NCBI GenBank assembly: GCA_027625355.1
Contig: JAQBWI010000002.1
Span: 1-35,164, forward strand
Direction: 5' to 3'
DNA length: 35,164 nucleotides
Source: Pseudomonadota bacterium
GTDB lineage: Bacteria > Pseudomonadota > Alphaproteobacteria > HIMB59 > GCA-002718135
Position 1 is the stretch's first letter, and each line of letters opens with the position of its first letter. Of the stretch, positions 4,339 to 23,194 are shown piece after piece. The notes under the pieces were generated by a model. The model searched no databases, was not told the origin of the DNA, and worked only from the letters and a program-made list of their open reading frames with translations. The translations under genes were made by a program, and so were the position numbers.

Positions 4339-4347
4339 TTCTTCTAT

Positions 4348-4363
4348 ATCAATATTTATTGAT
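4348..4363. promoter_or_regulatory. Palindrome ATCAATA-TT-TATTGAT in the HAD-SDR intercistronic gap
   Basis: 7-bp perfect arms seen directly, 10 nt upstream of the SDR ATG (4338). The half-site TATTGAT resembles the TATTGAAT half-sites of the two operator modules. The role is uncertain. Confidence 0.25.
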
Positions 4364-4373
4364 AACTTTGCAA

Positions 4374-5030: not shown

Positions 5031-5031
5031 A

Positions 5032-6165
5032 TCATCCTTTCACAGATCCTTGGGTTAATCCAGATACTATTTGTTTTTGAAAAAACATAACCAAAATAAA
5101 TAAAGGTAATGTTATTGATGCGGCAGCAGCAATAGACTCTACTAAATCTGTCATTGTTGTTTCCATATTAAAGTATTGCATAATAGCAGGTACCATAGTT
5201 TGTGATTGACCATCAAGTAACAGAGCACATACAAGGTAATCATTATAAGCTAATAAAAAAGAAAAAAGTCCTGTAGTAATAACTCCGGGCCACATTAAAG
5301 GCATAATTATCATCCAGAAGGCTTGAAAAGAATTACATCCATCTATCTGAGCTGCGTCATCTAGGTCTTGAGGAATATTCATAAAAAATGATCTTAACAT
5401 CCAAATCGTAAAAGGCTGGTTAATTGCAACCAACAGAATAATCACAGCTATTTTTTTTCCATAAAGGCCATAATCTATAAACAATTCTAAATAACCAGTG
5501 ACTAAAACTGAATGAGGAAGAGCTCTAAATACTAATGCTGCAACTAACAACCAAAACGCTATCATAGTATTACTTCTTGATAAAGCGTAGCCTGCGAGAG
5601 TACCTACTGTTAATGAAATTGTCACGACACCTAAGGTAACAAAAGCTGTATTTAAAAATTGTTTATAAAATTCATTTTCTGCCCAAACAGCAATAAAATG
5701 CTTAGTAGTAAAGCCTATCAAAGGTTTAGAAAGTATTTTTAAAAAAGGGACATACTCAAAAAAATTATTTAGAAAATTTGCAATATGAGTATTTAAAAAT
5801 AAAAAAAGTGCTAAAAATAAAGCGATGAAAATTAAGATCAATAATAAAAATGATATTAACTTGTTATTAGTTAGATTATTAATTTTCAAAAAATAATTTT
5901 CACGACTTTTGAAAAATTTAAAATAAATATAAATTGATAAACACAAAAACATTAAATTTATGAATGATAGTCCACCTACCTGCTTTAATGTATTAGGGCC
6001 AATAATTACATTCAAGGGATTTGCAGCAAAAGAGTCAACTGGTAACTTAATCGACATTATTAAGACCCACAAAAGAGGAAAAAGTGCTATAAAAGTCCAT
6101 AACATGATGGAAATACCAACTATCACTTTTAAGGTTAACGACAAATTAAACAATTTGCTTTCCAT
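5032..6165 (-). CDS. ABC transporter permease (CUT1 sugar-type, MalG/UgpE-like) with an extra hydrophobic insertion
   Basis: 377 aa, multi-TM. It has the EAA-loop DAAQIDGCNSFQAFWMIIMPL. About 100 extra residues lie between TM1 and the conserved core and contain two hydrophobic helices (LSFINLMFLCLSIYIYFKFF, LISFLLLILIFIALFLALFLFL). Its ATG overlaps the stop of the upstream permease (6167-6163). Confidence 0.85.
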   Translation of the reverse strand: MESKLFNLSLTLKVIVGISIMLWTFIALFPLLWVLIMSIKLPVDSFAANPLNVIIGPNTLKQVGGLSFINLMFLCLSIYIYFKFFKSRENYFLKINNLTNNKLISFLLLILIFIALFLALFLFLNTHIANFLNNFFEYVPFLKILSKPLIGFTTKHFIAVWAENEFYKQFLNTAFVTLGVVTISLTVGTLAGYALSRSNTMIAFWLLVAALVFRALPHSVLVTGYLELFIDYGLYGKKIAVIILLVAINQPFTIWMLRSFFMNIPQDLDDAAQIDGCNSFQAFWMIIMPLMWPGVITTGLFSFLLAYNDYLVCALLLDGQSQTMVPAIMQYFNMETTMTDLVESIAAAASITLPLFILVMFFQKQIVSGLTQGSVKG

Positions 6166-7184
6166 TAATTCCTCTTCTCTTTCTGTTCTTTGAAAACTCT
6201 TCGTAAAACAGGAATTAAAATTATTACAATTCCAATCATAGTAAGCATTGATGTTGCTGATGCCCTTCCAATATATCTACTTCCTGAATCATCTAATCTT
6301 AAAAAATCATATGTCATCCATTGAAGTGAGTTTAAAAACCCCTCTGCACTAAACCCAACTATTTCATCAAATACTCTATAAGCATCCATCAAATGAATAA
6401 GTGTAACAAAAACAATGAGAGGCATAATGTGAGGAATAACTATGTATCTTAATCTCTGAAATCGATTGGCGCCGTCAACAAAAGCTGCTTCTATTCTATC
6501 TTTATCAACAGTTTGTAAAGCCGCGTAAAATATTACAAATGCAAAAGGAGTTGTGTGCCAAATTTTATAAAACAAAACCAAAAGCTCAATTGACCAAGCT
6601 TTGGCAAAAACTGAAATATCTTTTTCTAAAATATATTCCAAAAACGAAGTTATAATACCATCACCAATAAATAACCATTTAATTGATAAAGAACCAATCA
6701 CAGGGGTAATTATGAAGGGTAATAATGTTATAAAAATTACAGGCCCTTTTAATCTATTTACCAAGTTGTTTACACATAATGCTAAACACAAACCAAAAAT
6801 AAGAACAAAAGGTAATGTTATAAATGTAAAAGTTAGTGTAAATCTTAAAGCTTTATAGAAATCAATTGATTGTATTGCAGACCAAGAATAACCATTATTT
6901 TGGATTATCGAATTTAAATCTACAAATTTTAAAATATTTTTATAATTTTCCCAACCAACCCATATATTAATTTTAGACCTATTTCCTTTTTCATCTAGAA
7001 CAGGCACTTTCAGAATTTCTGTTTTGCATCCAAACGGATCACACTTTTCTCTTTCTACAATCTCTAAAATATCTTGTTTGAAATGAAAACTTTGAAAAAA
7101 GACTAAAAATAATGGAATGGCAATAAAAAAAACCATCATTATAAATGATGGCATCGTAAAAATTAAAAAAGTTTTTTTATTCAT
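6165..7184 (-). CDS. ABC transporter permease (CUT1 sugar-type, MalF/UgpA-like)
   Basis: 339 aa, multi-TM. It has the EAA-loop EAAFVDGANRFQRLRYIVIPHIMP and a periplasmic loop after TM1 containing CDPFGC. Confidence 0.85.
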   Translation of the reverse strand: MNKKTFLIFTMPSFIMMVFFIAIPLFLVFFQSFHFKQDILEIVEREKCDPFGCKTEILKVPVLDEKGNRSKINIWVGWENYKNILKFVDLNSIIQNNGYSWSAIQSIDFYKALRFTLTFTFITLPFVLIFGLCLALCVNNLVNRLKGPVIFITLLPFIITPVIGSLSIKWLFIGDGIITSFLEYILEKDISVFAKAWSIELLVLFYKIWHTTPFAFVIFYAALQTVDKDRIEAAFVDGANRFQRLRYIVIPHIMPLIVFVTLIHLMDAYRVFDEIVGFSAEGFLNSLQWMTYDFLRLDDSGSRYIGRASATSMLTMIGIVIILIPVLRRVFKEQKEKRN

Positions 7185-7189
7185 ACAAA

Positions 7190-7226
7190 AATTACCCTCT
7201 ACTGTAATTTAGAGTAGAGGGTAATT
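7190..7226 (-). terminator. Intercistronic stem-loop (14-bp stem, 9-nt loop) plus U-run between the SBP and permease genes; attenuator / RNA-stabiliser type
   Basis: On the minus-strand RNA, AAUUACCCUCUACU (7226-7213) pairs perfectly with AGUAGAGGGUAAUU (7203-7190). It is followed by UUUGU and then the permease AUG (7184). The only SD-like element for the permease (GAGGG) lies inside the 3' arm. Confidence 0.6.
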
Positions 7227-7232
7227 AAATTT

Positions 7233-8447
7233 TTATAAAAGACCTTTTTCTGTTGCAGCAGTAATATAATCTGCCTCTATTTTTTCGAGTGTAGCTTTAG
7301 CTGTTGCTGCACCAGTTAAATAGTCAGGAAGCGTATTACCTAAAACTCCATGCAAAGTACTCATTTTTGCTGAAGCAGGATAAGGAGCAGCTCCTCCTTT
7401 TGCAGTCATAACAGCTCCAATGTTTGAAGGTGCTGGGTCAAAAGCACTTGAAATCCACGGTGCAGCTTCAGGACTTTCACCTAAATTTGAAGGATCTAAA
7501 CCAACCATAGCTAATTTAAATGCAGCTTCCGCTTCTTCATCAGAAATATTTTTTGCAATAACAACTCCATCCCACCAAAGAGTAGAAGCTGGTTTTCCTC
7601 CTCTTATCGTAGTAGGTGCTGATGCAAATTTAACTAATCCGACAACGCTTGATTCTTCTGCGTTATCCATTGCACCTGCTCTAGAAGCCCATAAATTTGC
7701 CATTGCAATTTTACCTTGTTGGAATTGTTGTTGAACGTACGTTGAATCAGAAGTCAAATATTCTGGATCCATATACTCAGTAAGCTTTTTCAACATTTTA
7801 AGTGTTTCGTAACCATTTGCATTATTTACAGCAGGCATATTTTCATCAAAGAAAGTATCAGCATAACCTAAATACATGTTTATAAACTCTTCACCTAAAT
7901 TCCAACCAGCTGCAAATGTACCTCCCAAAGGATAATCTACTACCCCAGCATTTTGTATAATTTTAGCAGCTTTGATCACTTCGTCGTAAGTTGTTGGTAC
8001 ATCAATACCTAGATCATTGAGAATATCTTCTCTATAAAATAAATGTTGAGCATTGGTCATCATGGCAATTGCCATGACCTGTCCATTAATTGTAACTTTT
8101 TGGTTGTCTTGTAAAGCACCACCATGCTTAGCAATCAAATCATCAAGCGGTCTAGTTAATCCAGCATCAAGAACTGAAACATTTGTAGATGCAGATACGC
8201 CTGCTAGAGCATACTGTGATGGATTACTATCCAGTGCTGCTACAATTTTATCTTTGTAATCTTGATCAAGTGTTGGTGTGAAATTACCACATTCTTCCAT
8301 AGCACTTGTAACAACTTTCCAAGCGTCAAATCCAGCACTTAGTGAAGTTAATGGAACATCGTTTTTATTTTCACAAGCTTTTGCAGAGCTAAAACCAATT
8401 AAGGCAAAAGATGCAATAACTGAAAATAATATAAATAATTTTTTCAT
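7233..8447 (-). CDS. Periplasmic substrate-binding protein of a CUT1-type ABC importer
   Basis: 404 aa. It has an N-terminal signal peptide MKKLFILFSVIASFALIGFSSAKA, an extracellular solute-binding family-1-like length and composition, and a strong SD (AGAGGAA) before the ATG. It is the first gene of the transporter operon. Confidence 0.85.
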   Translation of the reverse strand: MKKLFILFSVIASFALIGFSSAKACENKNDVPLTSLSAGFDAWKVVTSAMEECGNFTPTLDQDYKDKIVAALDSNPSQYALAGVSASTNVSVLDAGLTRPLDDLIAKHGGALQDNQKVTINGQVMAIAMMTNAQHLFYREDILNDLGIDVPTTYDEVIKAAKIIQNAGVVDYPLGGTFAAGWNLGEEFINMYLGYADTFFDENMPAVNNANGYETLKMLKKLTEYMDPEYLTSDSTYVQQQFQQGKIAMANLWASRAGAMDNAEESSVVGLVKFASAPTTIRGGKPASTLWWDGVVIAKNISDEEAEAAFKLAMVGLDPSNLGESPEAAPWISSAFDPAPSNIGAVMTAKGGAAPYPASAKMSTLHGVLGNTLPDYLTGAATAKATLEKIEADYITAATEKGLL

Positions 8448-8493
8448 ATGAATTCCTCTATTTATTTAAATATACAATTGATATTACATAAGA

Positions 8494-8534
8494 ATTCAAT
8501 AAAATGAATAATTATTCAATATATTGAATAAAAT
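8494..8534. promoter_or_regulatory. Operator module 1: nested palindromes including the perfect 20-bp TTATTCAATATATTGAATAA (8512-8531)
   Basis: Read directly from the sequence. There is a perfect 20-bp palindrome at 8512-8531, a perfect 14-bp palindrome TGAATAATTATTCA at 8505-8518, and an imperfect ATTCAATAAAATGAAT at 8494-8509. The module sits in the 99-bp divergent gap between the SBP operon and the LacI-family gene. Confidence 0.65.
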
Positions 8535-8546
8535 ATTGGTGGAAAA

Positions 8547-9539
8547 ATGAAAAAAAATGCAACTTCTCAAGAAGTAGCGAAATTAGCTGGAGTTTCTCAA
8601 TCTGCTGTTTCAAGGTGTTTCACAAAAGGTGCCAGTATTTCTAGCAGGACAAAATTAAGAGTTATCGAGGCTGCTAAAAAATTAGGTTACAAACCTCAGT
8701 CCTATTCTACGAGTACTTCTAATTTAGATGAAGGAGGATTGGTCGGAGTAATATTGCCATATATTACTAACAGATATTACCCTGAAGTTTTAATAGAATT
8801 ACATGAGGCACTAAGACATTCAGGATACAGGGTCTTACTAATCACTACAGATGATGGTGAAGAGCTTGATGACAACTTGATACAGCCTTATCTCAAAGAA
8901 AAACTCATTGCTATAGTTTCTGCTACAAAGCCAACAGATTCTTTCGTTGAAAATTGTTTAAATAAGCAGATTCAACTCATTGCCTTTAACAGAAATTGGA
9001 AAATACCAACTTTAAGTTCTGTAACCTGTGATCATAGATACGGAGGGGAGGCGGCTGCTGAACATTTCATTAATAACGGACACACTAAGATTGGAATTAT
9101 AGAAGGCCCAACAGGATCATTTGTGAGTAGCGAGAGATGTAGAGGTTTTAAAAATCCTATAAAAAATTCTAAAAGAATAAAATTATTTTCTGAAAAAGGA
9201 AATTTTACATATGAAGGAGGTTTTGAATCAACAAAAAAACTTTTGGAAAATGATATCACAGCAGTATTTTGTGCTGATGATATAATGGCATTTGGATGTC
9301 TGGATTGCATAAAGCAGCACACAAACTTAAGCGTCCCAAAGCAAATAGAAATTATTGGTTATGATGATATATCAACAGCAAATTGGCACTCCTATAATTT
9401 AACTACAGTAAGACAACCTATTCGAAAAATGTCAAAACTTATTACTCAGATTATTGATGACAATTTAAAAGACCCTGAATTTGAGCCTATTAATTATGTG
9501 ATACAAGGCAAATTTGTTTATCGCAAGACAACAAGATAG
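8547..9539 (+). CDS. LacI-family transcriptional regulator
   Basis: 330 aa. It has the N-terminal HTH ATSQEVAKLAGVSQSAVSRCF followed by a periplasmic-binding-protein-like sugar-binding fold (GYDD near the C-terminus). Confidence 0.9.
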   Translation: MKKNATSQEVAKLAGVSQSAVSRCFTKGASISSRTKLRVIEAAKKLGYKPQSYSTSTSNLDEGGLVGVILPYITNRYYPEVLIELHEALRHSGYRVLLITTDDGEELDDNLIQPYLKEKLIAIVSATKPTDSFVENCLNKQIQLIAFNRNWKIPTLSSVTCDHRYGGEAAAEHFINNGHTKIGIIEGPTGSFVSSERCRGFKNPIKNSKRIKLFSEKGNFTYEGGFESTKKLLENDITAVFCADDIMAFGCLDCIKQHTNLSVPKQIEIIGYDDISTANWHSYNLTTVRQPIRKMSKLITQIIDDNLKDPEFEPINYVIQGKFVYRKTTR

Positions 9540-9542
9540 AAA

Positions 9543-10235
9543 TTGTCTAAAATAATTTTGATTCCAGGATATATGTGTAACAAAACCATTTGGGATGCAC
9601 AAATACCTATTCTAAAAAAAAAATATAGTGTTTCTATTTCTTCTCTTAGGAACATTGCTACAGTAGATGATGCAGTACAAAAAATCATAAACAAAAATAC
9701 AAAAAAATTTTCCGTTATAGGTTTTTCAATGGGTGGATTTATTGCAATAAAATTAGCTATCGAGTATCCTGAAATATTAGATAAATTAGTTTTAATAGGT
9801 ACTAATGCAAGACATATTTCACAAAAAAGAAAGTTGCTTTTAGAAAAGTCATTAACAACTTTAAATAAAAATAACTTTGCAAAATTATTTTATCAAAAAA
9901 ACTATAGTTCCTATTTTTCTGATAAAGATTTGAAAAATACATCATACCAAAATACTGTTTACTCAATGGCTAAACAATTGGGGTATAAAACTTTTTTAAA
10001 TCAAACTAATTTAATTGTAAATAGACCCAATCAACTAACAAAGCTAAATAAGATTGTATCAAAAACTCTTATTATTCGTGGCAAAAACGATAAACTATCC
10101 TCAAATATTATGAACGATGAATTAAATAAGAAAATAAAATATTCAATGTATACAGAAATTAAAAATTCTTCTCATTTTGTAATGATAGAGAAGCCAAAAA
10201 TTTTTAATAAAATTGTTTCTAATTTTTTATCTTAA
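9543..10235 (+). CDS. Small alpha/beta-fold serine hydrolase (esterase/lactonase-type)
   Basis: 230 aa. It has the nucleophile elbow GFSMGG, an acid residue in GKNDKL, and His in SSHFVMIEKP. The start is TTG, 4 nt after the LacI stop. The first beta-strand (IILIPGY) precedes the first in-frame ATG, so the TTG start is needed. Confidence 0.7.
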   Translation: MSKIILIPGYMCNKTIWDAQIPILKKKYSVSISSLRNIATVDDAVQKIINKNTKKFSVIGFSMGGFIAIKLAIEYPEILDKLVLIGTNARHISQKRKLLLEKSLTTLNKNNFAKLFYQKNYSSYFSDKDLKNTSYQNTVYSMAKQLGYKTFLNQTNLIVNRPNQLTKLNKIVSKTLIIRGKNDKLSSNIMNDELNKKIKYSMYTEIKNSSHFVMIEKPKIFNKIVSNFLS

Positions 10236-10236
10236 A

Positions 10237-11367
10237 TCAAATCGTTTTAGATGCTATTTGAGTACCCTTAACTAACGAAACTAGTTTCTCATAACAAATT
10301 TTTTCATCAACTTTTCCAAATCCAGCAAAAGTACTAAAACCACAATCTGTACCAGCCATAATTTGCTCCTTTGGTACAAAAGTAGAAAATTGTTTTAACC
10401 GATCAGCAACAACTTCGGGGTGTTCAACAAAATTTGAAGTTGAGTCAATAACACCAGGCACAATGACTTTATCTTGTGGCAATTTAATCTTTTCAAAAAC
10501 TTTCCATTCATGTGCATGTCTTGGATTTGAAGACTCAATTAATAAATATTTACTTTTTGCCTTAAGTACAATTGGTAAGATTTTTTCCAAACCAATATCA
10601 AAAGTATGAGGTCCCTCATAATTTCCCCAGCAGATATGCATTCTAATTTTGTCATGTGAAACTAATGCCAATGAATGATTAAGAGCTTCAATTTGTTTTT
10701 CAGCCCGCAGCAAAAAACTTTCTTCATCTAATTCTTTAAAACTCATATGCCTTGCTAATGCTAAATCTGGACAATCAACTTGCAAGAATAAATTATTAGA
10801 AGTAATTTGTTGATATTCTTCTGACATAATCACACTAAGCTTATTTAGATACTCGTCATCATTGTTATAAAATTTATTAGGTAAAAAAACATTTATGACT
10901 CCTGGTGAAGCGGCATTCATAAAGCCCTTAGTATGATTATTAGCACTTAAAGCGGAAGATAAATTATTTATATCTTTTAAAAGATCATCATTATTTTTAA
11001 TTGAGAGTTCCCCAGTACAACACGGTCGGGTATAAGTAGGAGTTCCACCACTTTTAGCAATCTTATCTTTATATTCAGGAAATGCATCTAAATCAGCTGG
11101 TGCTCTTCTTTCGCTTTCACCAGAAAAACCATTAATTCTATCTTTAACATATGTAGCATAACTAATTTTACTCATTTCACCATCACTGATAAAATCAATA
11201 CCTATATCAAGTTGTTTTTTGACAACCTCACTTACATTTTTTTTTACAACATTATCAAATTCATTTTCACTAAAACTATCTCCCTTATCTTTTGCAAAAA
11301 GTAATTCTGATAAAGTTTTAGAGCGAGGTAAACTTCCTACATGTGTTGTTAATATTTTCGTGTTCAA
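10237..11367 (-). CDS. Stand-alone MetE catalytic-domain homologue (cobalamin-independent methionine synthase-like, COG0620 type)
   Basis: 376 aa. It has the N-terminal THVGSLPR and Zn-ligand-like positions MHICWGN (H-x-C), LIESSN (E) and GTDCGF (C). The start is TTG. It is the last gene of the bicupin operon. Confidence 0.7.
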   Translation of the reverse strand: MNTKILTTHVGSLPRSKTLSELLFAKDKGDSFSENEFDNVVKKNVSEVVKKQLDIGIDFISDGEMSKISYATYVKDRINGFSGESERRAPADLDAFPEYKDKIAKSGGTPTYTRPCCTGELSIKNNDDLLKDINNLSSALSANNHTKGFMNAASPGVINVFLPNKFYNNDDEYLNKLSVIMSEEYQQITSNNLFLQVDCPDLALARHMSFKELDEESFLLRAEKQIEALNHSLALVSHDKIRMHICWGNYEGPHTFDIGLEKILPIVLKAKSKYLLIESSNPRHAHEWKVFEKIKLPQDKVIVPGVIDSTSNFVEHPEVVADRLKQFSTFVPKEQIMAGTDCGFSTFAGFGKVDEKICYEKLVSLVKGTQIASKTI

Positions 11368-11374
11368 TCTTTAG

Positions 11375-12346
11375 CTATCCTGTTTTCATCAGAATTTGTT
11401 TCCAAATTTCAGTTTCATCAAATAAAATCCATTCATTTTTAATGCCTCGTGGTCCAAATTCAACATGAGATATAGCCATAATATGAACTTCTGCTTGACT
11501 AGGCACTCCAAAATATCCCGAACCAGAATGAACACCATTAAGCGACCATCTGATAGCTGCCTTTCTGTACTGATTTGGTTCATCTAAATAACTCACATGA
11601 TCAACTGAAAATGTTGCATCAGGAAATGATGAAAATAAAGAAGTCCAAAAAGTTTTTACTTCTTCAACTCCGTAAGCTTTTAATCCTCCTGGTAATTCTT
11701 GATTTATTGCCCTATCATATTTTTTATCAACTATATTGATATCTTTATTAAATATAGATTTTAAAACTTCTGCATATTCATAACCTGAGTTTTTTTCAGG
11801 TAAATTTAATTGTGAATATTTTAAATCCAAAGGTGTGTTTTTGTTAAAAGGAACTGCACAATTTTCAATACCCCCTTGATTATCAATTATTTGTTTTGCA
11901 TATTTTTTTGGATCTAAATTAAGTTGTCTTACAATTGCACCCTGATCTCTAACAAGCCATTCATCATACACTTGATTATCCTTGCATGCACAATCTGCAA
12001 TTACTCTATAAATAAGTTTTGCTCCTGTTGCTTTTCCATAAACTCCATCTTTCAAGTGAGTTGCTCTAGTTAAAATTCGATGCGATGATAAATACCCATC
12101 GTTTTCATTACCTATCCATATGACATCTTCACCTAAGAGTTGACGGTCAGGGAATTCTTCTAAAGTTGCATAAGTTGCTTTTACAACTACATCAGGTCCA
12201 TATACAACTCCAGCAGGGGACCTAACTGGAATTCCTTTTGCGTAATATTCTCTTATTGACTCAACATCCTTGTCTTCCCAAATCTGATAAGTAATTTTTA
12301 AAATATAATCAGGTAGATCTCTAAATTTTTGATCAAAACCCTTCAT
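11375..12346 (-). CDS. Tandem NTF2/SnoaL-like (predicted ester-cyclase) protein, function unknown (paralogue B)
   Basis: 323 aa with two SnoaL-like halves (ITYQIWEDKDVESIREYY...FPDRQLLGEDVI and VKTFWTSLFSSFPDATFSVDHV). It is more distant from paralogues A and C. Confidence 0.6.
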   Translation of the reverse strand: MKGFDQKFRDLPDYILKITYQIWEDKDVESIREYYAKGIPVRSPAGVVYGPDVVVKATYATLEEFPDRQLLGEDVIWIGNENDGYLSSHRILTRATHLKDGVYGKATGAKLIYRVIADCACKDNQVYDEWLVRDQGAIVRQLNLDPKKYAKQIIDNQGGIENCAVPFNKNTPLDLKYSQLNLPEKNSGYEYAEVLKSIFNKDINIVDKKYDRAINQELPGGLKAYGVEEVKTFWTSLFSSFPDATFSVDHVSYLDEPNQYRKAAIRWSLNGVHSGSGYFGVPSQAEVHIMAISHVEFGPRGIKNEWILFDETEIWKQILMKTG

Positions 12347-12349
12347 CTT

Positions 12350-13321
12350 TTAATTTTTTTGGCGCACTATATAAATGCTACCTTTATCGCCACTTATATT
12401 TTTAAGGCTTCTTGTAGAGTTTTTTGGAGAGGAGAACGCATCTCTAGGTCCAATTAACACTTTTTTATCATTACATGTAATTTCCCATTCTCCATCCAAA
12501 CATAAATAAACTTCAGATTTTGATGAGGTGTAAGGATGAATATGTGCATTACTACCTTCAAGTAGAGTAAGCCCAAATCCAGTTTTATGACTAATATATG
12601 GTTTAAACTCTTTATTATGAATAGTAAAATCATCTAAATAATTTAAAATAGAATTTGAATTATAATGTTCGTCATCTAGAAAATAATTTTTTTGATCTGC
12701 ATATCGAATTACAAATTTTTCAATTTCTTCAGAAGTATAATGATCAAATTGTGTTAATTCATTATCTGTGATTGGCTCTATAGCTTTTTTACCAACAGGT
12801 ATTTGATTTTTTTCTAAATCAATAAGAGAGTTATCACTTAAAAGAACCATTCCAGTTTCTTTCGCTTTTTTTAACAATGAAGGAGTCCATGTAATTACTC
12901 CCGGATCATTTTCACCTAAAACTACAAACATTAATGCTTGTTGATCACTGACATTTTGGAATCCTCTAAACATATTAGTAGGAAATGAAGCAACATCTCC
13001 TTTATGTAGAATAACCTCACCCTCTTTTCCATCTGATCCCCAATAAAAACGCCACGAACCAGAAAAAATAATAAATACCTCAGCTGTTGTATGACTATGA
13101 AGCCCAGAACCATTCATAGGTGCAGCACTTACTGCCCCAATATTAAACCCATGTTCCTCGGCAATTTTTACATTTTGTTTAGAATCTTCACTTACCCCAG
13201 GTCCCACTAATGAGTAATTCAATCTATCCTGATGTCCTTTTAACTTACCCTCAACAAATGGAACTTTACTTGGTATTAACTCATTAAATCTTGCTACACG
13301 TGTTTCTAAATCTGTTGACAT
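12350..13321 (-). CDS. Bicupin protein (two cupin barrels), function unknown
   Basis: 323 aa. Domain 1 has HSHTTAEVFIIFSG (HxH-x3-E-x6-G). Domain 2 has HIHPYTSSKSEVYLCLDG (HxH-x7-E-x6-G). Both motif-2 regions read P-x-N-x2-R-x3-N (PTNMFRGFQN, PKNSTRSLKN). Confidence 0.7.
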   Translation of the reverse strand: MSTDLETRVARFNELIPSKVPFVEGKLKGHQDRLNYSLVGPGVSEDSKQNVKIAEEHGFNIGAVSAAPMNGSGLHSHTTAEVFIIFSGSWRFYWGSDGKEGEVILHKGDVASFPTNMFRGFQNVSDQQALMFVVLGENDPGVITWTPSLLKKAKETGMVLLSDNSLIDLEKNQIPVGKKAIEPITDNELTQFDHYTSEEIEKFVIRYADQKNYFLDDEHYNSNSILNYLDDFTIHNKEFKPYISHKTGFGLTLLEGSNAHIHPYTSSKSEVYLCLDGEWEITCNDKKVLIGPRDAFSSPKNSTRSLKNISGDKGSIYIVRQKN

Positions 13322-13340
13322 TTCTTTAAAATTATATTTT

Positions 13341-13392
13341 ATTCATTTTTATTGAATAATATTCAAAATATTGAATAAATCAATTCAATATT
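13341..13392. promoter_or_regulatory. Operator module 2: array of TTGAATA/TATTCAA half-sites collinear with module 1
   Basis: TTGAATA-A-TATTCAA is a perfect 15-bp palindrome (13352-13366). TATTCAAAATATTGAATA (13360-13377) differs from the module-1 core by one base. AATATTGAAT-N6-ATTCAATATT (13367-13392) has 10-bp arms. The array lies in the 104-bp divergent gap between the bicupin operon and the NTF2/HisD-like operon. Confidence 0.65.
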
Positions 13393-13425
13393 ATCTCGAC
13401 ATGTGAGTAACTAAATTGATAAAAT

Positions 13426-14517
13426 ATGACAAAAATCGAAAATTTTAAAACCAGCATCCAAGCTAATGATGATGCTGAAATTATAAATATCGAACCTAAA
13501 AGAAACTTAGAGAATAAAAAAAAAATTAGGATATTTTTAAAAAATATTGCTGAATCAAATCTACAAAACTTAGAGCAAAATTTAAGAAATGCATATCATG
13601 AAAATGCAGAAGTGCGAGCATTTCATCCAATAAATGACATAAAGGGGATTGATGAAATAAAAGATAAATTATGGACACCTCTTTTAAAATCTTTTCCAGA
13701 TTTAGAGAGAAGAGATAATTTAATAATTGGCGGAAGTTTTCAAAATAAAATTTTTGTTTCTATTGTTTCTCATTTAACTGGTACATTCAAAAACTCATGG
13801 TTAAATGTGCCTTCCCATAATAAAACAATTCATCTGAGAATTTGTGAAGCTCACGAAATTCAGGATCAAAAAATTATTCGCTCCCATATCCTAATTGACA
13901 CATTAGATTTCATTCGTCAGGCAGGCTTCTGGCCAATAAAAAAATCATTAGGTGTAGAGGGAGTGTGGCCTGGTCCAATTACAGGGGATGGAACAACATT
14001 TGAAAATCATGATCAAGAATTATCAAAACTTTCAATGGATCAATCACTTACGATGCAGAGAAGTTTAAATGTTAAACCAGAAACAGATCCTGGTTCAACA
14101 CATGAATATATTAGAGATAAATTACTAAATCACCCCCAAAAAGAATATTGGCATCCTAAAATGATGTGGTACGGACCTTGCGGTATTGGTACAGCAAGAG
14201 GATTGGAAGGATTTGTTGATCATCATCAATTACCTTTCAGACTTACATTCAAAGAGAGAGATTACTGGAAAATTGGTCATTATATTGAAATAGCTGATGG
14301 TAATTATTCAATGACATCAGGTTGGCATAGTATTGAGTGTATACATGGTTCAAGTGAGTGGCTTGGATATGAAGCAACAAATAAATCAGTAACAATGAGA
14401 GTTATGGATTTCTATTTACATCATGAAGGTTTGATAAGAGAAAATTGGGTCCCAATAGACATAGCTCATATCTTAAATCAAATAGGTATAGATGTTTTTG
14501 ATCTAATAAAAAAATAA
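13426..14517 (+). CDS. Tandem NTF2/SnoaL-like protein, function unknown (paralogue C)
   Basis: 363 aa. It is a clear paralogue of 2498-3571, sharing PDLERRD, ITGDG, YWHPKMMWYGPCGIGTARGLEGF..HHQLPF and LIRENWVPID...IGIDVFDLIK. Confidence 0.6.
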   Translation: MTKIENFKTSIQANDDAEIINIEPKRNLENKKKIRIFLKNIAESNLQNLEQNLRNAYHENAEVRAFHPINDIKGIDEIKDKLWTPLLKSFPDLERRDNLIIGGSFQNKIFVSIVSHLTGTFKNSWLNVPSHNKTIHLRICEAHEIQDQKIIRSHILIDTLDFIRQAGFWPIKKSLGVEGVWPGPITGDGTTFENHDQELSKLSMDQSLTMQRSLNVKPETDPGSTHEYIRDKLLNHPQKEYWHPKMMWYGPCGIGTARGLEGFVDHHQLPFRLTFKERDYWKIGHYIEIADGNYSMTSGWHSIECIHGSSEWLGYEATNKSVTMRVMDFYLHHEGLIRENWVPIDIAHILNQIGIDVFDLIKK

Positions 14518-14578
14518 CAGATTTAATTGATGTTATTAGATAATTATATATACGTAGAAAATTAATTTAGAGGAAAAA

Positions 14579-15865
14579 ATGACAATTTCATATATCAAAA
14601 AAGCAAATAAAACTGCCTCTTCTGATGAGGTTGAAACGAGACAACGAGTTCAAGAAGTTCTCAATGAAATAGAATCTAAAAGAGACAAAGGTATTAAAGA
14701 AATTTCTCGCAAGTTTGATAAATATGAAGGTGATGTTATTGTTACCCAAGAAAAAATTGAAGAAGTAATAAAATCATTAGATCAAAAAGTAAAAGATGAT
14801 GTGCAGTTCTCCTATGATAGAGTTCGTAGTTTTGCAGAGCATCAACTAAAACATTTGAATAATGATTTTGAAGTTGAATTATCTCCAGGTCTTTTTGCTG
14901 GTCAAAAGTTAATACCTGTTAATAGTGTTGGTTGTTATGTTCCTGGTGGAAGATATAATAATATTGCCTCCGCTATAATGAGTATTACTACAGCAAAAGT
15001 TGCAGGTGTCAAAAATGTTATTGCTGCTAGTCCTCCAAAAGATGAAAATGGTGCTAATCGTATTATTATTTACACTGCAAATTTATGTGGAGCTGATGTC
15101 ATTATGAACTGTGGTGGTATTGGAGCGATTGGTGCTTTTGCTTATGGATGTTTTGGTAATCCAGAAGTTGATATGATTGTTGGTCCAGGAAATCAATACG
15201 TAGCAGAGGCAAAGAGAATTTTATATGGAAAAGTTGGAATTGATTTATTTGCAGGGCCAACAGAAATTGGCATTATTGCAGATCATACTGCTGATAAAGA
15301 AATGATTGCTGTTGATCTTGTTGGTCAAGCAGAGCACGGTCCAAATTCTCCAGCTTGGCTTTATACAACTGACAAAGAATTGTGTGATTATGTCATGAAG
15401 CGAGTTCCAGAATTAATCGCTGAACTACCTGAAACATCAAGAAATAACGCTGATGCTGCTTGGCGTGATTACGGTGAAGTTATTCTATGCGATACGAATG
15501 AAGAATTATGTGAGATCAGTGATAACTATGCTCCTGAACATTTAGAAGTTCAAGCTGAAAACTTAGATTGGTGGCTTGATAAACTAAAAAATTATGGATC
15601 ATTATTTTTAGGTGAAGAAACAACTGTTGCCTATGGTGATAAATGCTCTGGTACAAATCATATACTACCCACAAAAGGTGCTGCTAAATATACAGGCGGT
15701 TTATTTGTAGGTAAGTTTATTAAAACTGTTACTTTTCAACGCATGACCAAAGAATCAAACAAGGAAGTGGGCGCAGCCGCAGCAAGAATTTCAAGATTGG
15801 AAGGAATGGAAGCACATGCGCGAACAGGTGATGCTCGTTTAAGAAAATATGGTTTTCAAAATTAG
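14579..15865 (+). CDS. Histidinol-dehydrogenase-family NAD-dependent 4-electron alcohol dehydrogenase (catabolic paralogue, possibly HpsN-like)
   Basis: 428 aa with HisD-family blocks VPGG, GPGNQYVAEAK, GQAEHGPNS, APEHLEV and SGTNHILPT. It has a GAGGA SD. The context is not a his operon. Confidence 0.8.
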   Translation: MTISYIKKANKTASSDEVETRQRVQEVLNEIESKRDKGIKEISRKFDKYEGDVIVTQEKIEEVIKSLDQKVKDDVQFSYDRVRSFAEHQLKHLNNDFEVELSPGLFAGQKLIPVNSVGCYVPGGRYNNIASAIMSITTAKVAGVKNVIAASPPKDENGANRIIIYTANLCGADVIMNCGGIGAIGAFAYGCFGNPEVDMIVGPGNQYVAEAKRILYGKVGIDLFAGPTEIGIIADHTADKEMIAVDLVGQAEHGPNSPAWLYTTDKELCDYVMKRVPELIAELPETSRNNADAAWRDYGEVILCDTNEELCEISDNYAPEHLEVQAENLDWWLDKLKNYGSLFLGEETTVAYGDKCSGTNHILPTKGAAKYTGGLFVGKFIKTVTFQRMTKESNKEVGAAAARISRLEGMEAHARTGDARLRKYGFQN

Positions 15866-17736
15866 ATAATTTTCTTTGATTGTAAAAAATTAATAATCTG
15901 ATCAGTTAACTCTTCCGCATTACTTGATGTAGTATCTAAAATAAGATCAGGATTTTCTGGCTCTTCATATAAAGAGTCTATACCTGTAAAGTTTTTTAAT
16001 TCACCTGCTCTTGCTTTTTTATAAAGTCCTTTTGGATCTCTCTTTTCACATTCTTCTAATGGTGTGTTTACAAAAATTTCAAAAAACTCATCTGAAGATA
16101 ATAAATCTCTAGCCATTTGTCTTTCTGATTTGAAAGGTGAAATAAATGAAACCAATGTTATTAATCCAGCATCAGCCATTAGCTTTGATACTTCTGCAAC
16201 ACGACGAATATTTTCTACCCTATCAGGGTCTGTGAAACCTAAATCCTTATTCAATCCATGACGAACGTTATCACCATCTAATAAATAAGTTCTCTTGCCT
16301 ATAGTGTGTAATTTTTGTTCTAAAATATTAGCAATTGTTGATTTACCAGAACCTGATAATCCGGTAAACCACACAACACATGGCTTTTGAGAATTTAACT
16401 CAGATCGAGTTTTCTTATTGATTGACATTTTGTGCCAAGAAATATTGCTAGATCGACGAAGAGCGTGATCAATCATGCCAACCCCAATTGTTTTATTATT
16501 ATAAGGATCAATTATAACAAAGCTTCCCAACTTTTGATTGTTAGAGTACGAACTAATAGCATGCGTTTTATTAATGGCGACTTTACAATAAGCAATATCA
16601 TTTAAATTTAGTTTTTTAGAGGCCACTTCTTCGTAAGAATTAACATTTATACTGTGCACTAAATCAGTTATTTTTCCATTAATGTAAGCGTTATTAAAAC
16701 GAAAAATATAATTTCTCTCAGGCAACATTGGCTCTTGATCCATCCAAATTAAATGGGAGGCAAACTGATCTGCCTTTATTATCTGATCATTTTTTTTTGA
16801 AAGAATAACATCTCCTCGTGAAATATCTAATTCGTCACTTAAAGTTAATGTAATTGCTTGTCCGGAGTATGCTTCACTTAATTCTCCTTTAGGTCCGTAG
16901 ATATTTTTCACTGAAGTTAGCGTATTACTGGATGCAGTGGTTATTAAATCACCTCTTGCAATTTTACCATCAGCTATCGTACCTGAATAACCTCTGAAAT
17001 TTGCACTTGATCTATTTACCCATTGGACTGGGAAACTTAATTCATTGTTTTGGCTTGAATCCAAAACATCGACTTTTTCTAATGTTTCAATTAATGTTAA
17101 TCCCTTATACCATTTCGTATTTTCAAAATTTGAAAATACATTATCCCCTTTTAAGGCTGACAATGGAATAAAATTTATAGATGTAAAAGTAAAATTTTTA
17201 ATTAATTCCTTATACTCATCAACAATTCTCTCAAAAATATTTTCTTTATAATTAACTAGATCCATCTTATTTATTGCAACTACAATATGTTTAATGCCCA
17301 AAAGATTAACAATAAAACTATGTCTTTTTGTTTGCTCTAATAATCCTTTTTCTGCATCTATTAATATTATCGCCACATCAGAATTTGAGGCTCCCGTTGC
17401 CATATTCCGTGTATATTGTTCGTGACCAGGTGTATCGGCAATGATAAATTTACAATTTGATGTTTCAAAATAACGATACGCTACATCTATAGTAATTCCC
17501 TGTTCCCGCTCTGCTTGTAAGCCATCAACAAGTAAAGCTAGATCAATTTCTTTACCTTGAGTTCCATATTTTTCACTTTCTATTTTTGTCTGATCTATCT
17601 GATCTAGAAAAATATTTTGAGAATCAAATAGCAATCTTCCTAATAAAGTAGATTTTCCATCATCAACCGAACCACAGGTTAAAATTTTAACTTGTTTTTT
17701 TTTATTTTGAGCTTGAAAGAATTTATTTAAATCCAC
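15862..17736 (-). CDS. cysNC: Bifunctional sulfate adenylyltransferase subunit 1 / adenylylsulfate (APS) kinase
   Basis: 624 aa. The GTPase motifs are GSVDDGKST, DTPGHEQY and NKMD. The C-terminal APS kinase has the P-loop GLSGSGKST and LDGDNVRHGLN. The GTG start overlaps the cysD stop by 1 nt. Confidence 0.9.
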   Translation of the reverse strand: MDLNKFFQAQNKKKQVKILTCGSVDDGKSTLLGRLLFDSQNIFLDQIDQTKIESEKYGTQGKEIDLALLVDGLQAEREQGITIDVAYRYFETSNCKFIIADTPGHEQYTRNMATGASNSDVAIILIDAEKGLLEQTKRHSFIVNLLGIKHIVVAINKMDLVNYKENIFERIVDEYKELIKNFTFTSINFIPLSALKGDNVFSNFENTKWYKGLTLIETLEKVDVLDSSQNNELSFPVQWVNRSSANFRGYSGTIADGKIARGDLITTASSNTLTSVKNIYGPKGELSEAYSGQAITLTLSDELDISRGDVILSKKNDQIIKADQFASHLIWMDQEPMLPERNYIFRFNNAYINGKITDLVHSINVNSYEEVASKKLNLNDIAYCKVAINKTHAISSYSNNQKLGSFVIIDPYNNKTIGVGMIDHALRRSSNISWHKMSINKKTRSELNSQKPCVVWFTGLSGSGKSTIANILEQKLHTIGKRTYLLDGDNVRHGLNKDLGFTDPDRVENIRRVAEVSKLMADAGLITLVSFISPFKSERQMARDLLSSDEFFEIFVNTPLEECEKRDPKGLYKKARAGELKNFTGIDSLYEEPENPDLILDTTSSNAEELTDQIINFLQSKKII

Positions 17737-18635
17737 TAAAAGTAACCCTCTTGTTTCTTTTTTTCCATTGAGCCAATTTGATCTTTGTCAATTGCCCTGC
17801 CTTCTCTTTCAGAATTTTTACTTTTAATTAACTCTAAAATAATCTCTTCAACTGATTTTGCACTAGACTCAATTGCACCAGTTAGAGGATAACATCCTAA
17901 AGTTCTAAAGCGAACTAACTTATTCTCAATAGTTTCATGTTCTTTGACATCCAATCTTTTATCATCAACCATAAGAAGAAGATTATCTCTTTCAATAACT
18001 GGGCGAATAGCAGCTAAATATAAAGGAACAATTTCAATTTTTTCTTCATAGATATATTGCCATACATCTAATTCAGTCCAATTTGATAAAGGGAAAACTC
18101 TTACACTCTCTCCTTTGTCTATTTTTGTATTATATAAGTTCCATAACTCTGGTCTTTGGTTTTTTGGATCCCAATGATGATGCTGATCTCGAAAAGAAAA
18201 AATTCTTTCTTTAGCTCTTGATTTTTCTTCATCTCTTCTAGCGCCACCAAATGCTGCGTCAAACTTATATTTGTTCAAAGCCTGTTTAAGCGCTTGCGTC
18301 TTCATAACATCGGTGTGAAGTTTTGATCCATGTGTAATTGGACCAATATTATTTTTTACTCCTTCATTATTTATATGAACTAATAAATCTAAATCATATT
18401 TTTTTTTGATTACATCACGAAACTTAATCATTTCTTTAAACTTCCATGTTGTATCTACATGTAATAATTTAAATGGAAGTTTTCCTGGTAAAAATGCCTT
18501 TAATGCTAAATGAAGCATAACAGCAGAGTCCTTACCAATAGAGTATAACATAACAGGATTTTCAAATTCTGATGCTACCTCTCGAATTATATGTATGCTC
18601 TCAGATTCTAATTTTTCCAGATGTGATAAATTCAT
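17736..18635 (-). CDS. cysD: Sulfate adenylyltransferase subunit 2
   Basis: 299 aa with the PAPS-reductase/ATP-PPase fold motif SIGKDSAV. It is typical CysD in length and in its coupling to cysN. Confidence 0.9.
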
Positions 18636-18641
18636 AGCTCT

Positions 18642-19433
18642 TTATAGTTTATAGTTTCCTATAGCATAAAATTGAGGATTGAGCAGATCCACTTTTGAGT
18701 TATAATTTATCTCATTATTTTCAAATGTACTAACTCTACCTCCAGCCTCATCAACAATGATATGACCGGCAGCAATATCCCATTCTGAAGTTGGACCAAA
18801 GCGAGGGTAAATATCTGCAACACCCTCAGCAATTAAGCAAAATTTTAAAGAACTTCCTGCTTGAACAATTACTGGATTAGGAAAATTTTTATTTACCCAA
18901 CTATCAAAATCTTGATTTGAATGCGATCGACTACCAATAATTCTTTTTATACTTGAATGGTTAGATACAAATATTTTCTTTGCTTCTTTTAAGTCAATTA
19001 ATTTAGAACTAGAATTAATTTTGAACGATCCATAATTTTTCTGTGCAAAATATAAGTCAGATTTAACAGGAGTATAAATAACTCCTAAAATTGATTTATT
19101 ATTTTCAATCAAAGCAATATTGACAGTAAATTCTCCATTTTTTTTTATAAATTCTTTTGTTCCATCTAATGGATCAACTAACCAGTATGTAGTCCAATTT
19201 TTTCGTTGATTCCATTCCACAAGTGACTCTTCACTTAAAATTGGAATAGTTCTGTCTAACTCATGTAAAGCATTAAGGATCATTTTATTAGAAGCTAAAT
19301 CAGCTTTTGTTAAAGGAGAGGAGTCATCTTTATGTGTAACTTCAATATCATCGTTATAGTATTTAAGAATTTCTTCTCCAGCTTGTATTGCAATATTACA
19401 AACCTTAAGCAACAAATTATTATTCTCAATCAT
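18642..19433 (-). CDS. cysQ: 3'(2'),5'-bisphosphate nucleotidase (inositol monophosphatase family)
   Basis: 263 aa with IMPase-family motifs LSEES, WLVDPLDGTKEF and WDIAAGH. It is the first gene of the cysQ-cysD-cysNC unit. Confidence 0.8.
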   Translation of the reverse strand: MIENNNLLLKVCNIAIQAGEEILKYYNDDIEVTHKDDSSPLTKADLASNKMILNALHELDRTIPILSEESLVEWNQRKNWTTYWLVDPLDGTKEFIKKNGEFTVNIALIENNKSILGVIYTPVKSDLYFAQKNYGSFKINSSSKLIDLKEAKKIFVSNHSSIKRIIGSRSHSNQDFDSWVNKNFPNPVIVQAGSSLKFCLIAEGVADIYPRFGPTSEWDIAAGHIIVDEAGGRVSTFENNEINYNSKVDLLNPQFYAIGNYKL

Positions 19434-19480: not shown

Positions 19481-20680
19481 ATGGAAAAAGAAATTTATAA
19501 AATTATTGATAAAGAAAAGTTGAACATTGTTAATGATACAATAGAAAACGCCCACGGACTACCAAATGAATGTTATTTAAGTGGACCTTATAATAACATT
19601 GAGCGCAAGAAGATATTTGAAGACAAGTGGGTTACAATTGGCGTAGCAAGTTCTGTACCAAATCCAGGAGATACAAAGCCGTTTGATTTATTGGGGATTC
19701 CACTAATCATAATAAGAGATAAAAAACATAAAGTTCGCGTTTTTCATAATGTGTGCAGTCACCGAGGATATAAATTAGTTCAAGAAACTTGTTCACTTAA
19801 ACATGTTTTAAGATGTCCGTATCACTCATGGTCATATGACTTTGAGGGTAATTTAGTTGCCACACCTCATTTAGGAGGAATTAACAAACATGAACATGAT
19901 GATTTTGATAAATCTAAAAGCAGCCTTAAGGAAGTGCGAACATCTATTTGGTTGGATTTAATAATGGTTAATATTTCAGAAAATGAATTACCTTTTACAG
20001 AGTACATTAAGCCTCTAGAAGACAGATGGTCTGCATTTTGGACTAAAGAAGATCAAAAATTAATTGTTCACGCTGAAGATTATGGCTATTTTAATTTAGA
20101 GGCAAAATGCAATTGGAAGTTTGCAATAGAAAATTATTGTGAAAGTTATCACTTACCTTTTGTTCACCCTGGCTTGAATGCCTATTCAAAAATTGATGAT
20201 CATTATCATATTCAGGGATTACCTAATCGTTTCGCAGGTCAAGGCACACTTGTGTATAATCCTAAGTTTGAAAATAATGAAAAATTTCCGACTTTTCCTG
20301 GGTGGTCCAAAGAAAAAGAAGAACACGCTGAGTATGTAGCGTTATTTCCAAATGTTATGCTAGGTATTCACAAAGATCACTATTATGCTTACTGGTTAGA
20401 GCCTATTTCACATGATTTCACAAAAGAGCATATGGAAATTTATTACGTTGGTGAAGAAGCAGCGCTAAGTGATACTTTTAAATCACTAAGAAAACAAAAT
20501 TATGAACAATGGTATAGTATTCAAACAGAAGATTTAAATATTATTGAAGGGATGCAAGAAGGAAGAAATTCTCCTGCTTATAATGGTGGGAACTTTTCAC
20601 CAGTCTTGGATAATCCAACACATCACTTTAATAAATGGATTGCTAATTCATTAACTGATAATGAATTTTCTACTACATAA
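19481..20680 (+). CDS. Rieske [2Fe-2S] non-haem-iron oxygenase, alpha-subunit-only type (Stc2/GbcA/CntA-like demethylase class)
   Basis: 399 aa. It has the canonical Rieske C-x-H-x17-C-x2-H (CSHRG...CPYHSW) and the mononuclear-iron-like motif ENYCESYHLPFVH. No beta subunit is present. Confidence 0.85.
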   Translation: MEKEIYKIIDKEKLNIVNDTIENAHGLPNECYLSGPYNNIERKKIFEDKWVTIGVASSVPNPGDTKPFDLLGIPLIIIRDKKHKVRVFHNVCSHRGYKLVQETCSLKHVLRCPYHSWSYDFEGNLVATPHLGGINKHEHDDFDKSKSSLKEVRTSIWLDLIMVNISENELPFTEYIKPLEDRWSAFWTKEDQKLIVHAEDYGYFNLEAKCNWKFAIENYCESYHLPFVHPGLNAYSKIDDHYHIQGLPNRFAGQGTLVYNPKFENNEKFPTFPGWSKEKEEHAEYVALFPNVMLGIHKDHYYAYWLEPISHDFTKEHMEIYYVGEEAALSDTFKSLRKQNYEQWYSIQTEDLNIIEGMQEGRNSPAYNGGNFSPVLDNPTHHFNKWIANSLTDNEFSTT

Positions 20681-20687
20681 AATATAA

Positions 20688-22727: not shown

Positions 22728-22747
22728 AAAGTTAAATTTTATCCAAG

Positions 22748-22776: not shown

Positions 22777-22809
22777 TCACGTAAAATAGAAGGGGAAAGA
22801 AGAGAAAAA

Positions 22810-23187: not shown

Positions 23188-23194
23188 AATATTT

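Follow-up and report, generated by a model that had tools for sequence, protein, structure and literature searches.

A predicted paired-dyad operator module in the control regions of a putative local LacI-family regulon from Pelagibacteraceae

The closest described systems for the element studied here, a predicted operator module found in two divergent control regions (site 1, 8448-8546; site 2, 13322-13425) of a 35,164-nt stretch of contig JAQBWI010000002.1 (the whole stretch is referred to as the window), belong to the LacI/GalR family of bacterial regulators. The operator of Escherichia coli PurR, ACGCAA-ACGT-TTGCGT, conforms to the box xGCAA-N4-TTGCx, its central CpG is contacted by Leu54 of the hinge helix, and the regulon is global. 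The motifs of LacI-family members are overwhelmingly even palindromes of 16-22 nt, with a central CG in 1173 of 1303 members, another centre in 49 and a degenerate one in 29; moreover, 72% of the regulators are autoregulated, with sites located mostly 30-140 nt upstream of start codons, and RegPrecise-type local autoregulated regulons for sugar catabolism are the variant to which our locus is best compared (Ravcheev et al. 2014, PMC4052901). For E. coli CytR the consensus is TGCAA-N2-3-TTGCA, and an unstructured linker has been held responsible for its relaxed spacing (PMC3454398).

With the local sugar-catabolism regulons the locus shares a regulator that combines a LacI-type helix-turn-helix (HTH) with a periplasmic-binding-protein-like domain and is encoded divergently from an ATP-binding cassette (ABC) transporter operon, an even 18-bp palindrome, sites at the promoter of the regulator gene and at adjacent catabolic operons, and conservation across orthologous loci. 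It differs from them in the A/T centre of the operator (ATAT, AATA, ATTA and others), in a hypervariable hinge without the Leu of RbsR and CcpA, in having two dyads exactly 20 nt apart per control region, in its streamlined SAR11 host and in the lack of a recognisable sugar pathway, the genes coding for tandem SnoaL/NTF2 proteins, a bicupin, a MetE-like protein and an HpsN-type enzyme. Features in common with CytR are the inverted TGCAA/TTGCA half-sites, which occur in the pure TGCAA...TTGCA form in two related loci (L015 and L163), and an apparently unstructured or variable linker. More than one half-site spacing, N4 and a conserved N5, may be tolerated as well. Nevertheless, the regulator is not a CytR orthologue (138.3 bits against NCBIfam model NF008269, the cut-off of which is 436), the spacing is almost always N4 and not N2-3 or N10-13, and the predicted mode is direct repression instead of anti-activation of CRP, the CytR operator being located between tandem CRP sites; no TGTGA-N6-TCACA sequence flanks the dyads in the window. 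The PurR operator has the same register (xKCAA-N4-TTGMx) and is likewise a dimer-bound even palindrome of 16-18 bp, but in place of the central CpG, the hinge Leu54 and the global regulon of PurR there are a variable A/T centre, a hinge without this Leu and sites restricted to a local cluster.

Most probably, the stretch 13340-13377 serves as the second operator in a LacI-family regulon that is local and autoregulated, comprises four transcription units and spans 2498-15865. Co-regulation of these genes via a shared operator had been proposed in an earlier note on the same DNA, and sequence comparison, i.e. the conservation of the module, its specificity and a third copy in related loci, argues for this proposal. 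We found no description of this SAR11 LacI regulon in the literature searched.

Two phased dyads in the divergent control regions

The elements of the two control regions are the following:

8493-8510: secondary dyad of site 1, AATTCAA-TAAA-ATGAATA; starts 20 nt upstream of the primary dyad and matches the 18-mer with three mismatches
8513-8530: predicted primary operator dyad of site 1, TATTCAATATATTGAATA (TATTCAA-TATA-TTGAATA), a perfect 18-bp palindrome ending 16 nt before the ATG of the lacI-family gene
8547-9539, plus strand: gene of the LacI-family regulator (330 amino acids), the presumed binder; adjoins site 1
13340-13358: secondary dyad of site 2, TATTCAT-TTTTA-TTGAATA, with an N5 spacer; starts 20 nt before the primary dyad
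13360-13377: predicted primary operator dyad of site 2, TATTCAAAATATTGAATA (TATTCAA-AATA-TTGAATA); one mismatch to the perfect palindrome at 8513-8530
13378-13385, minus strand: invariant AATCAATT adjoining the primary dyad; candidate -35 element (TTGATT) of the promoter of the bicupin operon
13383-13392: orphan fifth half-site, the right arm ATTCAATATT of a palindrome with 10-bp arms

Both control regions contain the same module of two dyads, TKCAW-N4(5)-WTGMA, the starts of which are 20 nt apart and the half-sites of which have the core TKCA(A)/(T)TGMA. The primary dyad, ATTCAA-N4-TTGAAT (8514-8529 and 13361-13376), is the sole dyad with identical geometry at both sites in every lineage and, as a perfect 18-mer at site 1 and a one-mismatch copy at site 2, it is an even palindrome within the 16-22 bp typical of the family. 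The secondary dyads, ATTCAA-N4-ATGAAT at site 1 and ATTCAT-N5-TTGAAT at site 2, start exactly 20 nt upstream of the primary ones. The half-sites are separated by N4 at five of the six dyad positions and by a conserved N5 at the secondary dyad of site 2. The dyad centres, in which the CG usual for LacI-family operators is missing, are A/T or vary across sites and lineages (TATA, AATA, ATTA, TATT, GCAT, CAGT, GAAA and others).

All lineages keep the primary dyad of site 1 as ATKCAA-N4-WTGMAT, and of its secondary dyad the 20-nt phasing as well as the core TKCA / TGAA. At site 2 the half-sites of the primary dyad are invariant in seven lineage representatives, the N4 centre alone varying (AATA, ATTA, TATT); in L001 and L152 the left arm reads TTCAT. 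The secondary dyad of site 2 is retained in all lineages as ATKCAT-N5-WTGAAT and is paired with the primary dyad in the module scan, and the adjoining AATCAATT element is likewise invariant in all lineages.

When the window was re-read, the sequences and coordinates of the earlier note proved exact throughout. The segment 13341-13381 (ATTCATTTTTATTGAATAATATTCAAAATATTGAATAAATC) is indeed collinear, on the same strand, with 8494-8534 (repeat search: 39 nt, 74% identity, family D8), the 20-mers TATTCAATATATTGAATAAA (8513-8532) and TATTCAAAATATTGAATAAA (13360-13379) differ at a single base, and the perfect 7+1+7 palindrome TTGAATA-A-TATTCAA (13352-13366), the palindrome AATATTGAAT-N6-ATTCAATATT (13367-13392) with perfect arms of 10 bp each and the 104 nt between the ATGs at 13321 (minus strand) and 13426 (plus strand) are all present. 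The view that the three overlapping palindromes form the unit at site 2 has to be abandoned, however, as comparison with 47 related loci identifies the pair of N4/N5 dyads as the unit. The 15-bp palindrome arises where the secondary dyad, with its right arm, meets the left arm of the primary dyad, and because its counterpart at site 1 (TGAATAATTATTCA, 8504-8517) is spaced differently it is a by-product of this junction and not a functional element. The same difference in spacing led us to reject the TGAAT...ATTCA junction palindromes as true LacI-type 'TG...CA' sites.

The 10-bp-arm palindrome, though perfect in the window, is conserved only in part, its right arm being kept in four of seven lineages. 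Thus, the array is longer at site 2 in the sense that a fifth half-site, ATTCAA (13383-13388), is present, but this half-site is retained as ATTCAA only in the window, L001 and L162 and as ATTCAT in L163, whereas L002, L012 and L015 have ATTAAA, ATTTAA and ATTAAT, respectively. Similarly, the size of the 104-nt gap was given correctly, but the array does not fill it, since the conserved block (approximately 13334-13385) occupies roughly half. Between this block and the ATG on the plus strand, TGTGAGTAACT (13403-13413) is kept in six of seven lineages amid unconserved spacer sequence; neither a promoter nor any other function could be matched to it.

The module is rare within the window, which has approximately 30% G+C and is 2.5% intergenic. 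With up to three mismatches, the 18-mer occurs in the 35,164 nt only at 8493, 8513 and 13360 (0.26 occurrences expected), and none of 100 dinucleotide shuffles reaches three; TTCAA-N4-TTGAA is found three times, the third copy being located inside a coding region. The hexamer TTGAAT/ATTCAA is under-represented (56 copies observed vs approximately 80 expected in shuffles), and seven of its eight intergenic copies fall into the two spacers, which account for 203 of the 888 intergenic nt. The rarity of the 18-mer and this clustering bear out the earlier judgement that the two near-identical sites are unlikely to be compositional noise. A scan for the module, defined as two relaxed dyads with starts 19-21 nt apart, returns exactly two pairs in the window (8495/8515 and 13342/13362) and none in any other of its intergenic regions; 500 dinucleotide shuffles yield a mean of 0.004 and never two or more, a statistic that is partly circular, since the definition of a relaxed dyad was itself drawn post hoc from the very sites it is applied to.

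The comparison covers 47 related Pelagibacteraceae loci, 30 of them from species-representative genomes, 10 with an identical regulator, three more distant and four retrieved via two other proteins of the window. Their regulators are 67-100% identical to that of the window, and the closest genomes are tropical-ocean single-cell assemblies. All related loci that extend into either spacer contain the module, while the flanks diverge, which speaks against the concern, raised in the earlier note, that the motif might be missing from orthologous loci. When the seven lineage representatives are aligned at the primary dyad, the block 13341-13385 has 37 invariant positions out of 45, as compared to 3 of 19 to its left and 2 of 40 to its right; within the block, variation is limited to the dyad centres, the junction and the K/W positions. 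The loci L153-L161, which have an identical regulator and approximately 98.5% DNA identity, exhibit one single-nucleotide polymorphism in the spacer, located outside the block, and are too close for footprinting.

The second concern, that the motif might be a generic promoter element found upstream of many unrelated genes, is countered by the distribution of the module: it is absent from the other spacers of the window, in 43 related loci (781 kb) it occurs only in divergent spacers of the cluster, and none was found in at least 120 control contigs (758 kb), each of which already holds one exact TATTCAA-N4-TTGAATA. These contigs stem from a metagenome-wide scan with TATTCAANNNNTTGAATA and represent soil, gut, freshwater and other biomes; among the matches listed none is orthologous to the locus or near a gene of the cluster, and they are uninformative on the regulon itself. 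On a metagenome scaffold with 99.98% identity to the window, approximately 8.3 kb to its left and 1.3 kb to its right contain no further module.

The clusters of L162, L163 and L164, whose regulators are 67-69% identical to that of the window, include two additional, divergent SnoaL genes, and the approximately 120-nt spacer between these two genes contains a third two-dyad module with the same 20-nt phasing, e.g. TTCAATACAATGAA at 10615 and TGCAAAAATTTGAA at 10635 of L163. Outside the dyads this spacer has no evident similarity to sites 1 and 2. As the shuffle statistic is partly circular, the third copy is the strongest evidence for the module, being an independent confirmation at the level of sequence that does not depend on the post hoc pattern.

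A few peculiarities of the related loci may be mentioned. L152, a metagenome contig with an identical regulator and many fragmented genes, has a mosaic structure, its identity to the window being 90.5% as far as 15979 and 98.2% beyond this position, and its site 2 is of the L001 type with the TTCAT arm. The distant relatives alone have a second type of palindrome in the spacer between the regulator and ABC transporter genes, with the form TGTGA-N3-TCACA confined to L162 (7920-7934) and L164 (approximately 7897-7911) and GTGCA-N3-TGCAC present in L163 (approximately 7905-7920); it may be the site of another factor. Two contigs labelled as metagenome-assembled genomes of Methanobacteriota (L022) and Gammaproteobacteria (L027) are syntenic with the Pelagibacteraceae cluster, have a regulator that is approximately 70% identical and are probably mis-binned.

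The LacI-family protein and its predicted mode of action

The regulator gene adjoins site 1 in all loci. Its product has an N-terminal LacI-type HTH (PF00356, E = 9.5e-12) and a type-I periplasmic-binding-protein-like effector domain (PF13377, Peripla_BP_3, 9.9e-22; PF00532, Peripla_BP_1, 1e-17), i.e. the architecture of the LacI/GalR family, with RbsR, CcpA and PurR as full-length PDB matches and RbsR, CytR and PurR as the closest NCBIfam models, all of them below cut-off. Residues 6-49, which form the HTH, are essentially invariant in 32 orthologues, which matches the invariant half-sites and fits the protein as the presumed binder, a role assigned to it by adjacency and co-occurrence. As in a typical regulog, sites are present upstream of the regulator's own gene and of adjacent operons and are conserved in orthologous loci.

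The hinge, on the other hand, is hypervariable, residues 50-63 having no invariant column in the 32 orthologues, and the position taken by the hinge Leu in RbsR (ALARSL) and CcpA (AVARGL) is occupied, according to pairwise alignments, by a Thr in PQSYSTST, so that the conserved Leu of the hinge helix is missing. In an AlphaFold2 model residues 52-61 are non-helical with a predicted local distance difference test (pLDDT) score below 50, but the whole model is of low confidence (mean pLDDT 64.7, predicted template modelling score 0.44, alignment of 32 sequences) and thus, although it fits a non-helical hinge, it counts for little. The C-terminus is located approximately where the LacI core ends, and the tetramerisation extension of LacI appears to be missing.

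Based on these features we propose the following mechanism. Without the tetramerisation extension the regulator probably acts as a dimer, the HTH of which would read the half-sites TKCA(A)/(T)TGMA as inverted repeats and leave the 4-bp centre unread (ATKCAA-N4-TTGMAT). As the dyad starts are 20 nt apart, corresponding to about two helical turns, two dimers may be placed on one face of the DNA and would cover approximately 38 bp of each spacer of approximately 100 bp. On the minus strand of site 2, TTGATT (13383-13378) and TATTAT (13361-13356) are separated by 16 nt, match the sigma-70 consensus at 9 of 12 positions and bracket the primary dyad; this pair, with TATTAT as -10-like element, is a candidate promoter of the bicupin operon, and the dyad would then lie between -35 and -10, a classical position for occlusion. 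At site 1 a distance of 16 nt separates the end of the primary dyad from the start codon of the regulator gene, and the regulator is predicted to be autoregulated. With the dyads occupied, RNA polymerase would be denied access to the two divergent promoters of each spacer and four units would be shut off, namely ABC transporter-HAD-SDR-SnoaL, regulator-hydrolase, bicupin-SnoaL-MetE-like and SnoaL-HpsN, until an effector binds to the periplasmic-binding-protein-like domain. What the sequences show is the module itself, its statistics and conservation, its co-occurrence with the regulator and the independent third copy; the identity of the binder, repression rather than activation, the promoter positions, cooperativity and induction by an effector are inferences. 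Taken together, the element is best classed as a LacI-family operator; it probably functions in the canonical manner, apart from a CytR-like disregard of the centre.

Several points weigh against this mechanism and the assignment of the operator. Besides the partial circularity of the shuffle statistic, the binder is assigned by adjacency and co-occurrence alone, the centre of the operator is A/T instead of the CG found in approximately 90% of LacI-family motifs, and as the hinge lacks the canonical Leu the canonical insertion into the minor groove cannot be assumed. Moreover, the secondary dyad of site 2 has N5 instead of N4, sigma-70 consensus scans do not place the plus-strand promoters convincingly, and in the third region of L163/L164 an extended -10 element, TGGTATAAT, is located approximately 22 nt downstream of the dyad, which puts the operator over the -35 region or just upstream and not in the core promoter. 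Finally, the estimate of specificity extends to the window, the related loci and the control contigs only.

A more far-reaching possibility, which we put forward only tentatively and regard as rather doubtful, is that the regulator represents a CytR-like LacI branch without hinge helix, which recognises nothing but 5-bp half-sites, binds to paired A/T-centred dyads as two phased dimers and switches an uncharacterised SAR11 pathway of wide distribution (CUT1 transporter, several tandem NTF2/SnoaL proteins, bicupin, MetE-like enzyme) ending in an HpsN-type sulfopropanediol (DHPS) dehydrogenase. If so, an inducible route for a sulfonated sugar or polyol would exist in an organism believed to control its transcription only sparingly.

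Could the dyads be occupied by a different DNA-binding protein, the LacI-family protein reading something else? Candidates would be a Crp/Fnr-type factor on the junction palindromes TTGAAT-N3/4-ATTCAA or IHF on TCAA-N4-TTG. The FNR box, TTGAT-N4-ATCAA, is a palindrome of fixed spacing and the IHF consensus, WATCAANNNNTTR, is asymmetric; the junction palindromes resemble the former and TTCAA-N4-TTG is one base off the latter, and the link between the LacI-family protein and its sites, being one of adjacency and co-occurrence, is indirect and would allow for such a factor. Yet the hexamers of the junction palindromes are separated by N4 at 8504-8517 and by N3 at 13352-13366, which argues against a Crp/Fnr-type box, while the N4 geometry of the dyads is constant. 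Many orthologous half-sites read TGCAA, which breaks the IHF core TCAA, and the arms are symmetric over 7 bp each, a symmetry that IHF does not need, which argues against an IHF site as well. In addition, the module is confined in every lineage to the cluster that bears the LacI gene, and we consider a different binder improbable.

Still less probable is a reading in which the spacers merely contain overlapping divergent promoters, with TTGAAT as -35 boxes on both strands, A/T-rich spacer sequence as -10 elements and no dedicated repressor site. TTGAAT does match TTGACA at four of six positions, the minus-strand -35/-10-like pair overlaps the block, and promoters, too, are conserved in spacers. 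Outside the two control regions, however, the intergenic DNA of the window (685 nt, with three divergent spacers among it) contains one TTGAAT and no dyad, and sigma-70 consensus scans find promoter-like matches no more often than in shuffles, TTGATT-16-TATTAT being the only match that is both conserved and plausible. Moreover, in the third region of L163/L164 the near-perfect extended -10 TGGTATAAT follows TTGAAT after 22 nt, which is not the spacing of a -35 box, and neither the alternation of T and G (TTCAA/TGCAA) nor the exact 20-nt phasing in three unrelated spacers is a property of promoters. RNA hairpins in 5' leaders acting as attenuator, stability or translation elements can practically be dismissed, for although the inverted repeats would give short hairpins if transcribed and the minus-strand fold of 13322-13425 reaches z = -2.0, three of the four folds (both spacers, both strands) are within the range of shuffles (z = -0.4 to -1.1), the stems comprise seven A/U-rich pairs, an Rfam search of the whole window returned no family, the arms are conserved in sequence without compensatory changes while loops and centres vary, and the same module serves both strands of divergent spacers.

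Genes of the cluster and its surroundings

The LacI-family operator module, as we read it, delimits a cluster that contains the following genes and putative operons in addition to the regulator gene:

2498-8447, minus strand: transport and enzyme operon, divergent from the regulator; CUT1-type solute-binding protein, two permeases, HAD hydrolase, SDR and tandem-SnoaL protein
9543-10235, plus strand: alpha/beta-hydrolase gene (Pfam Abhydrolase_1), starting 3 nt after the stop codon of the regulator gene
10237-13321, minus strand: operon left of site 2; bicupin, tandem-SnoaL and MetE-like (Meth_synt_2) proteins; syntenic in related loci
13426-15865, plus strand: operon right of site 2; tandem-SnoaL protein and HpsN-type sulfopropanediol 3-dehydrogenase

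The regulatory mechanism is ordinary, i.e. a known kind of bacterial gene control, and modest extra interest arises from the SAR11 host, from the atypical operator centre and hinge and from the delimitation of an uncharacterised pathway. SAR11, the most abundant marine heterotroph, has genomes with very few transcription factors, and the host lineage of the window is Pelagibacteraceae (SAR11-type). A defined operator with its cognate regulator would provide a concrete, testable example of inducible catabolism in SAR11. The boundary of the proposed regulon groups approximately 15 genes of the uncharacterised pathway into one functional unit, which includes three tandem SnoaL/NTF2 proteins, a bicupin, a MetE-like protein and the HpsN-type DHPS dehydrogenase, the latter encoded close to xsc and pta, and the operator/regulator pair may serve as a practical handle for finding the substrate of the pathway.

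The operon 2498-8447 is syntenic in all related loci. The hydrolase gene is presumably co-transcribed with the regulator gene, and each run of genes on the same strand may form one transcript; for the putative operon 13426-15865 this is less certain, as a 61-nt gap (14518-14578) precedes its second gene. This second gene (14579-15865) codes for a HisD-family enzyme and had been labelled HisD-like; its product, however, matches the sulfopropanediol (R-DHPS) 3-dehydrogenase HpsN (PDB 8v35) with E = 1e-155, as compared to approximately 1e-70 for true histidinol dehydrogenases, and the gene is better described as that of an HpsN-type DHPS dehydrogenase. For the bicupin no PDB relative was found, and the MetE-like protein and the solute-binding protein have weak matches only, the latter to the sulfoquinovosyl-glycerol binding protein SmoF (E = 3e-10). 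From the HpsN-type enzyme and the weak similarity to SmoF one may speculate that the effector is a sulfonated sugar or polyol.

The content of the cluster varies between lineages. In the HisD-family slot the genes of L001 and L012 are 94-97% identical to the HpsN-type gene of the window, whereas those of L002 (15966-17249) and L015 (7910-9193), lineages with 83% and 70% identical regulators, respectively, are only approximately 46% identical, suggesting replacement of the operon's last gene in these lineages. In L002, L012 and L027 the ABC binding protein and permeases (5032-8447 in the window) are 38-55% identical, while the regulator is 83% and the enzymes are up to 96% identical and the operators are kept; it would thus appear that the transporter has been exchanged while its control region stayed the same.

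Further genes with a possible relation to sulfur are found on both sides of the cluster. The gene xsc, coding for sulfoacetaldehyde acetyltransferase (25765-27540; 1027 bits with the NCBIfam model), is 10 kb from the HpsN-type gene, and pta is located just left of the window on the 99.98%-identical metagenome scaffold (L167, 6469-7380); together with the HpsN-type gene they look like an organosulfonate island. Directly adjoining the regulon are cysNC (fused sulfate adenylyltransferase subunit and adenosine 5'-phosphosulfate kinase), cysD and cysQ (15862-19433). Their presence is notable, as the lineage is known for its lack of assimilatory sulfate reduction, and these genes may be related to the handling of sulfite or sulfonate. 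Between them and xsc, 19481-25762 codes for a Rieske oxygenase (weak GbcA-like match), a large OYE/FMN-FAD oxidoreductase, a CMD-family protein and a GMC (choline-dehydrogenase-like) oxidoreductase, which look like a catabolic set of the methylated-amine or betaine type; no operator module is found near 19481-25762.

Two further observations concern the neighbourhood of the hydrolase gene. In L001 an extra HAD-like gene follows the hydrolase gene (11690-12440), flanked by a second copy of the 3' end of the MetE-like gene. At the junction of the MetE-like and hydrolase genes in the window (10228-10258), 31 nt are 84% identical to the 3' end of the tandem-SnoaL gene at 14469-14499.

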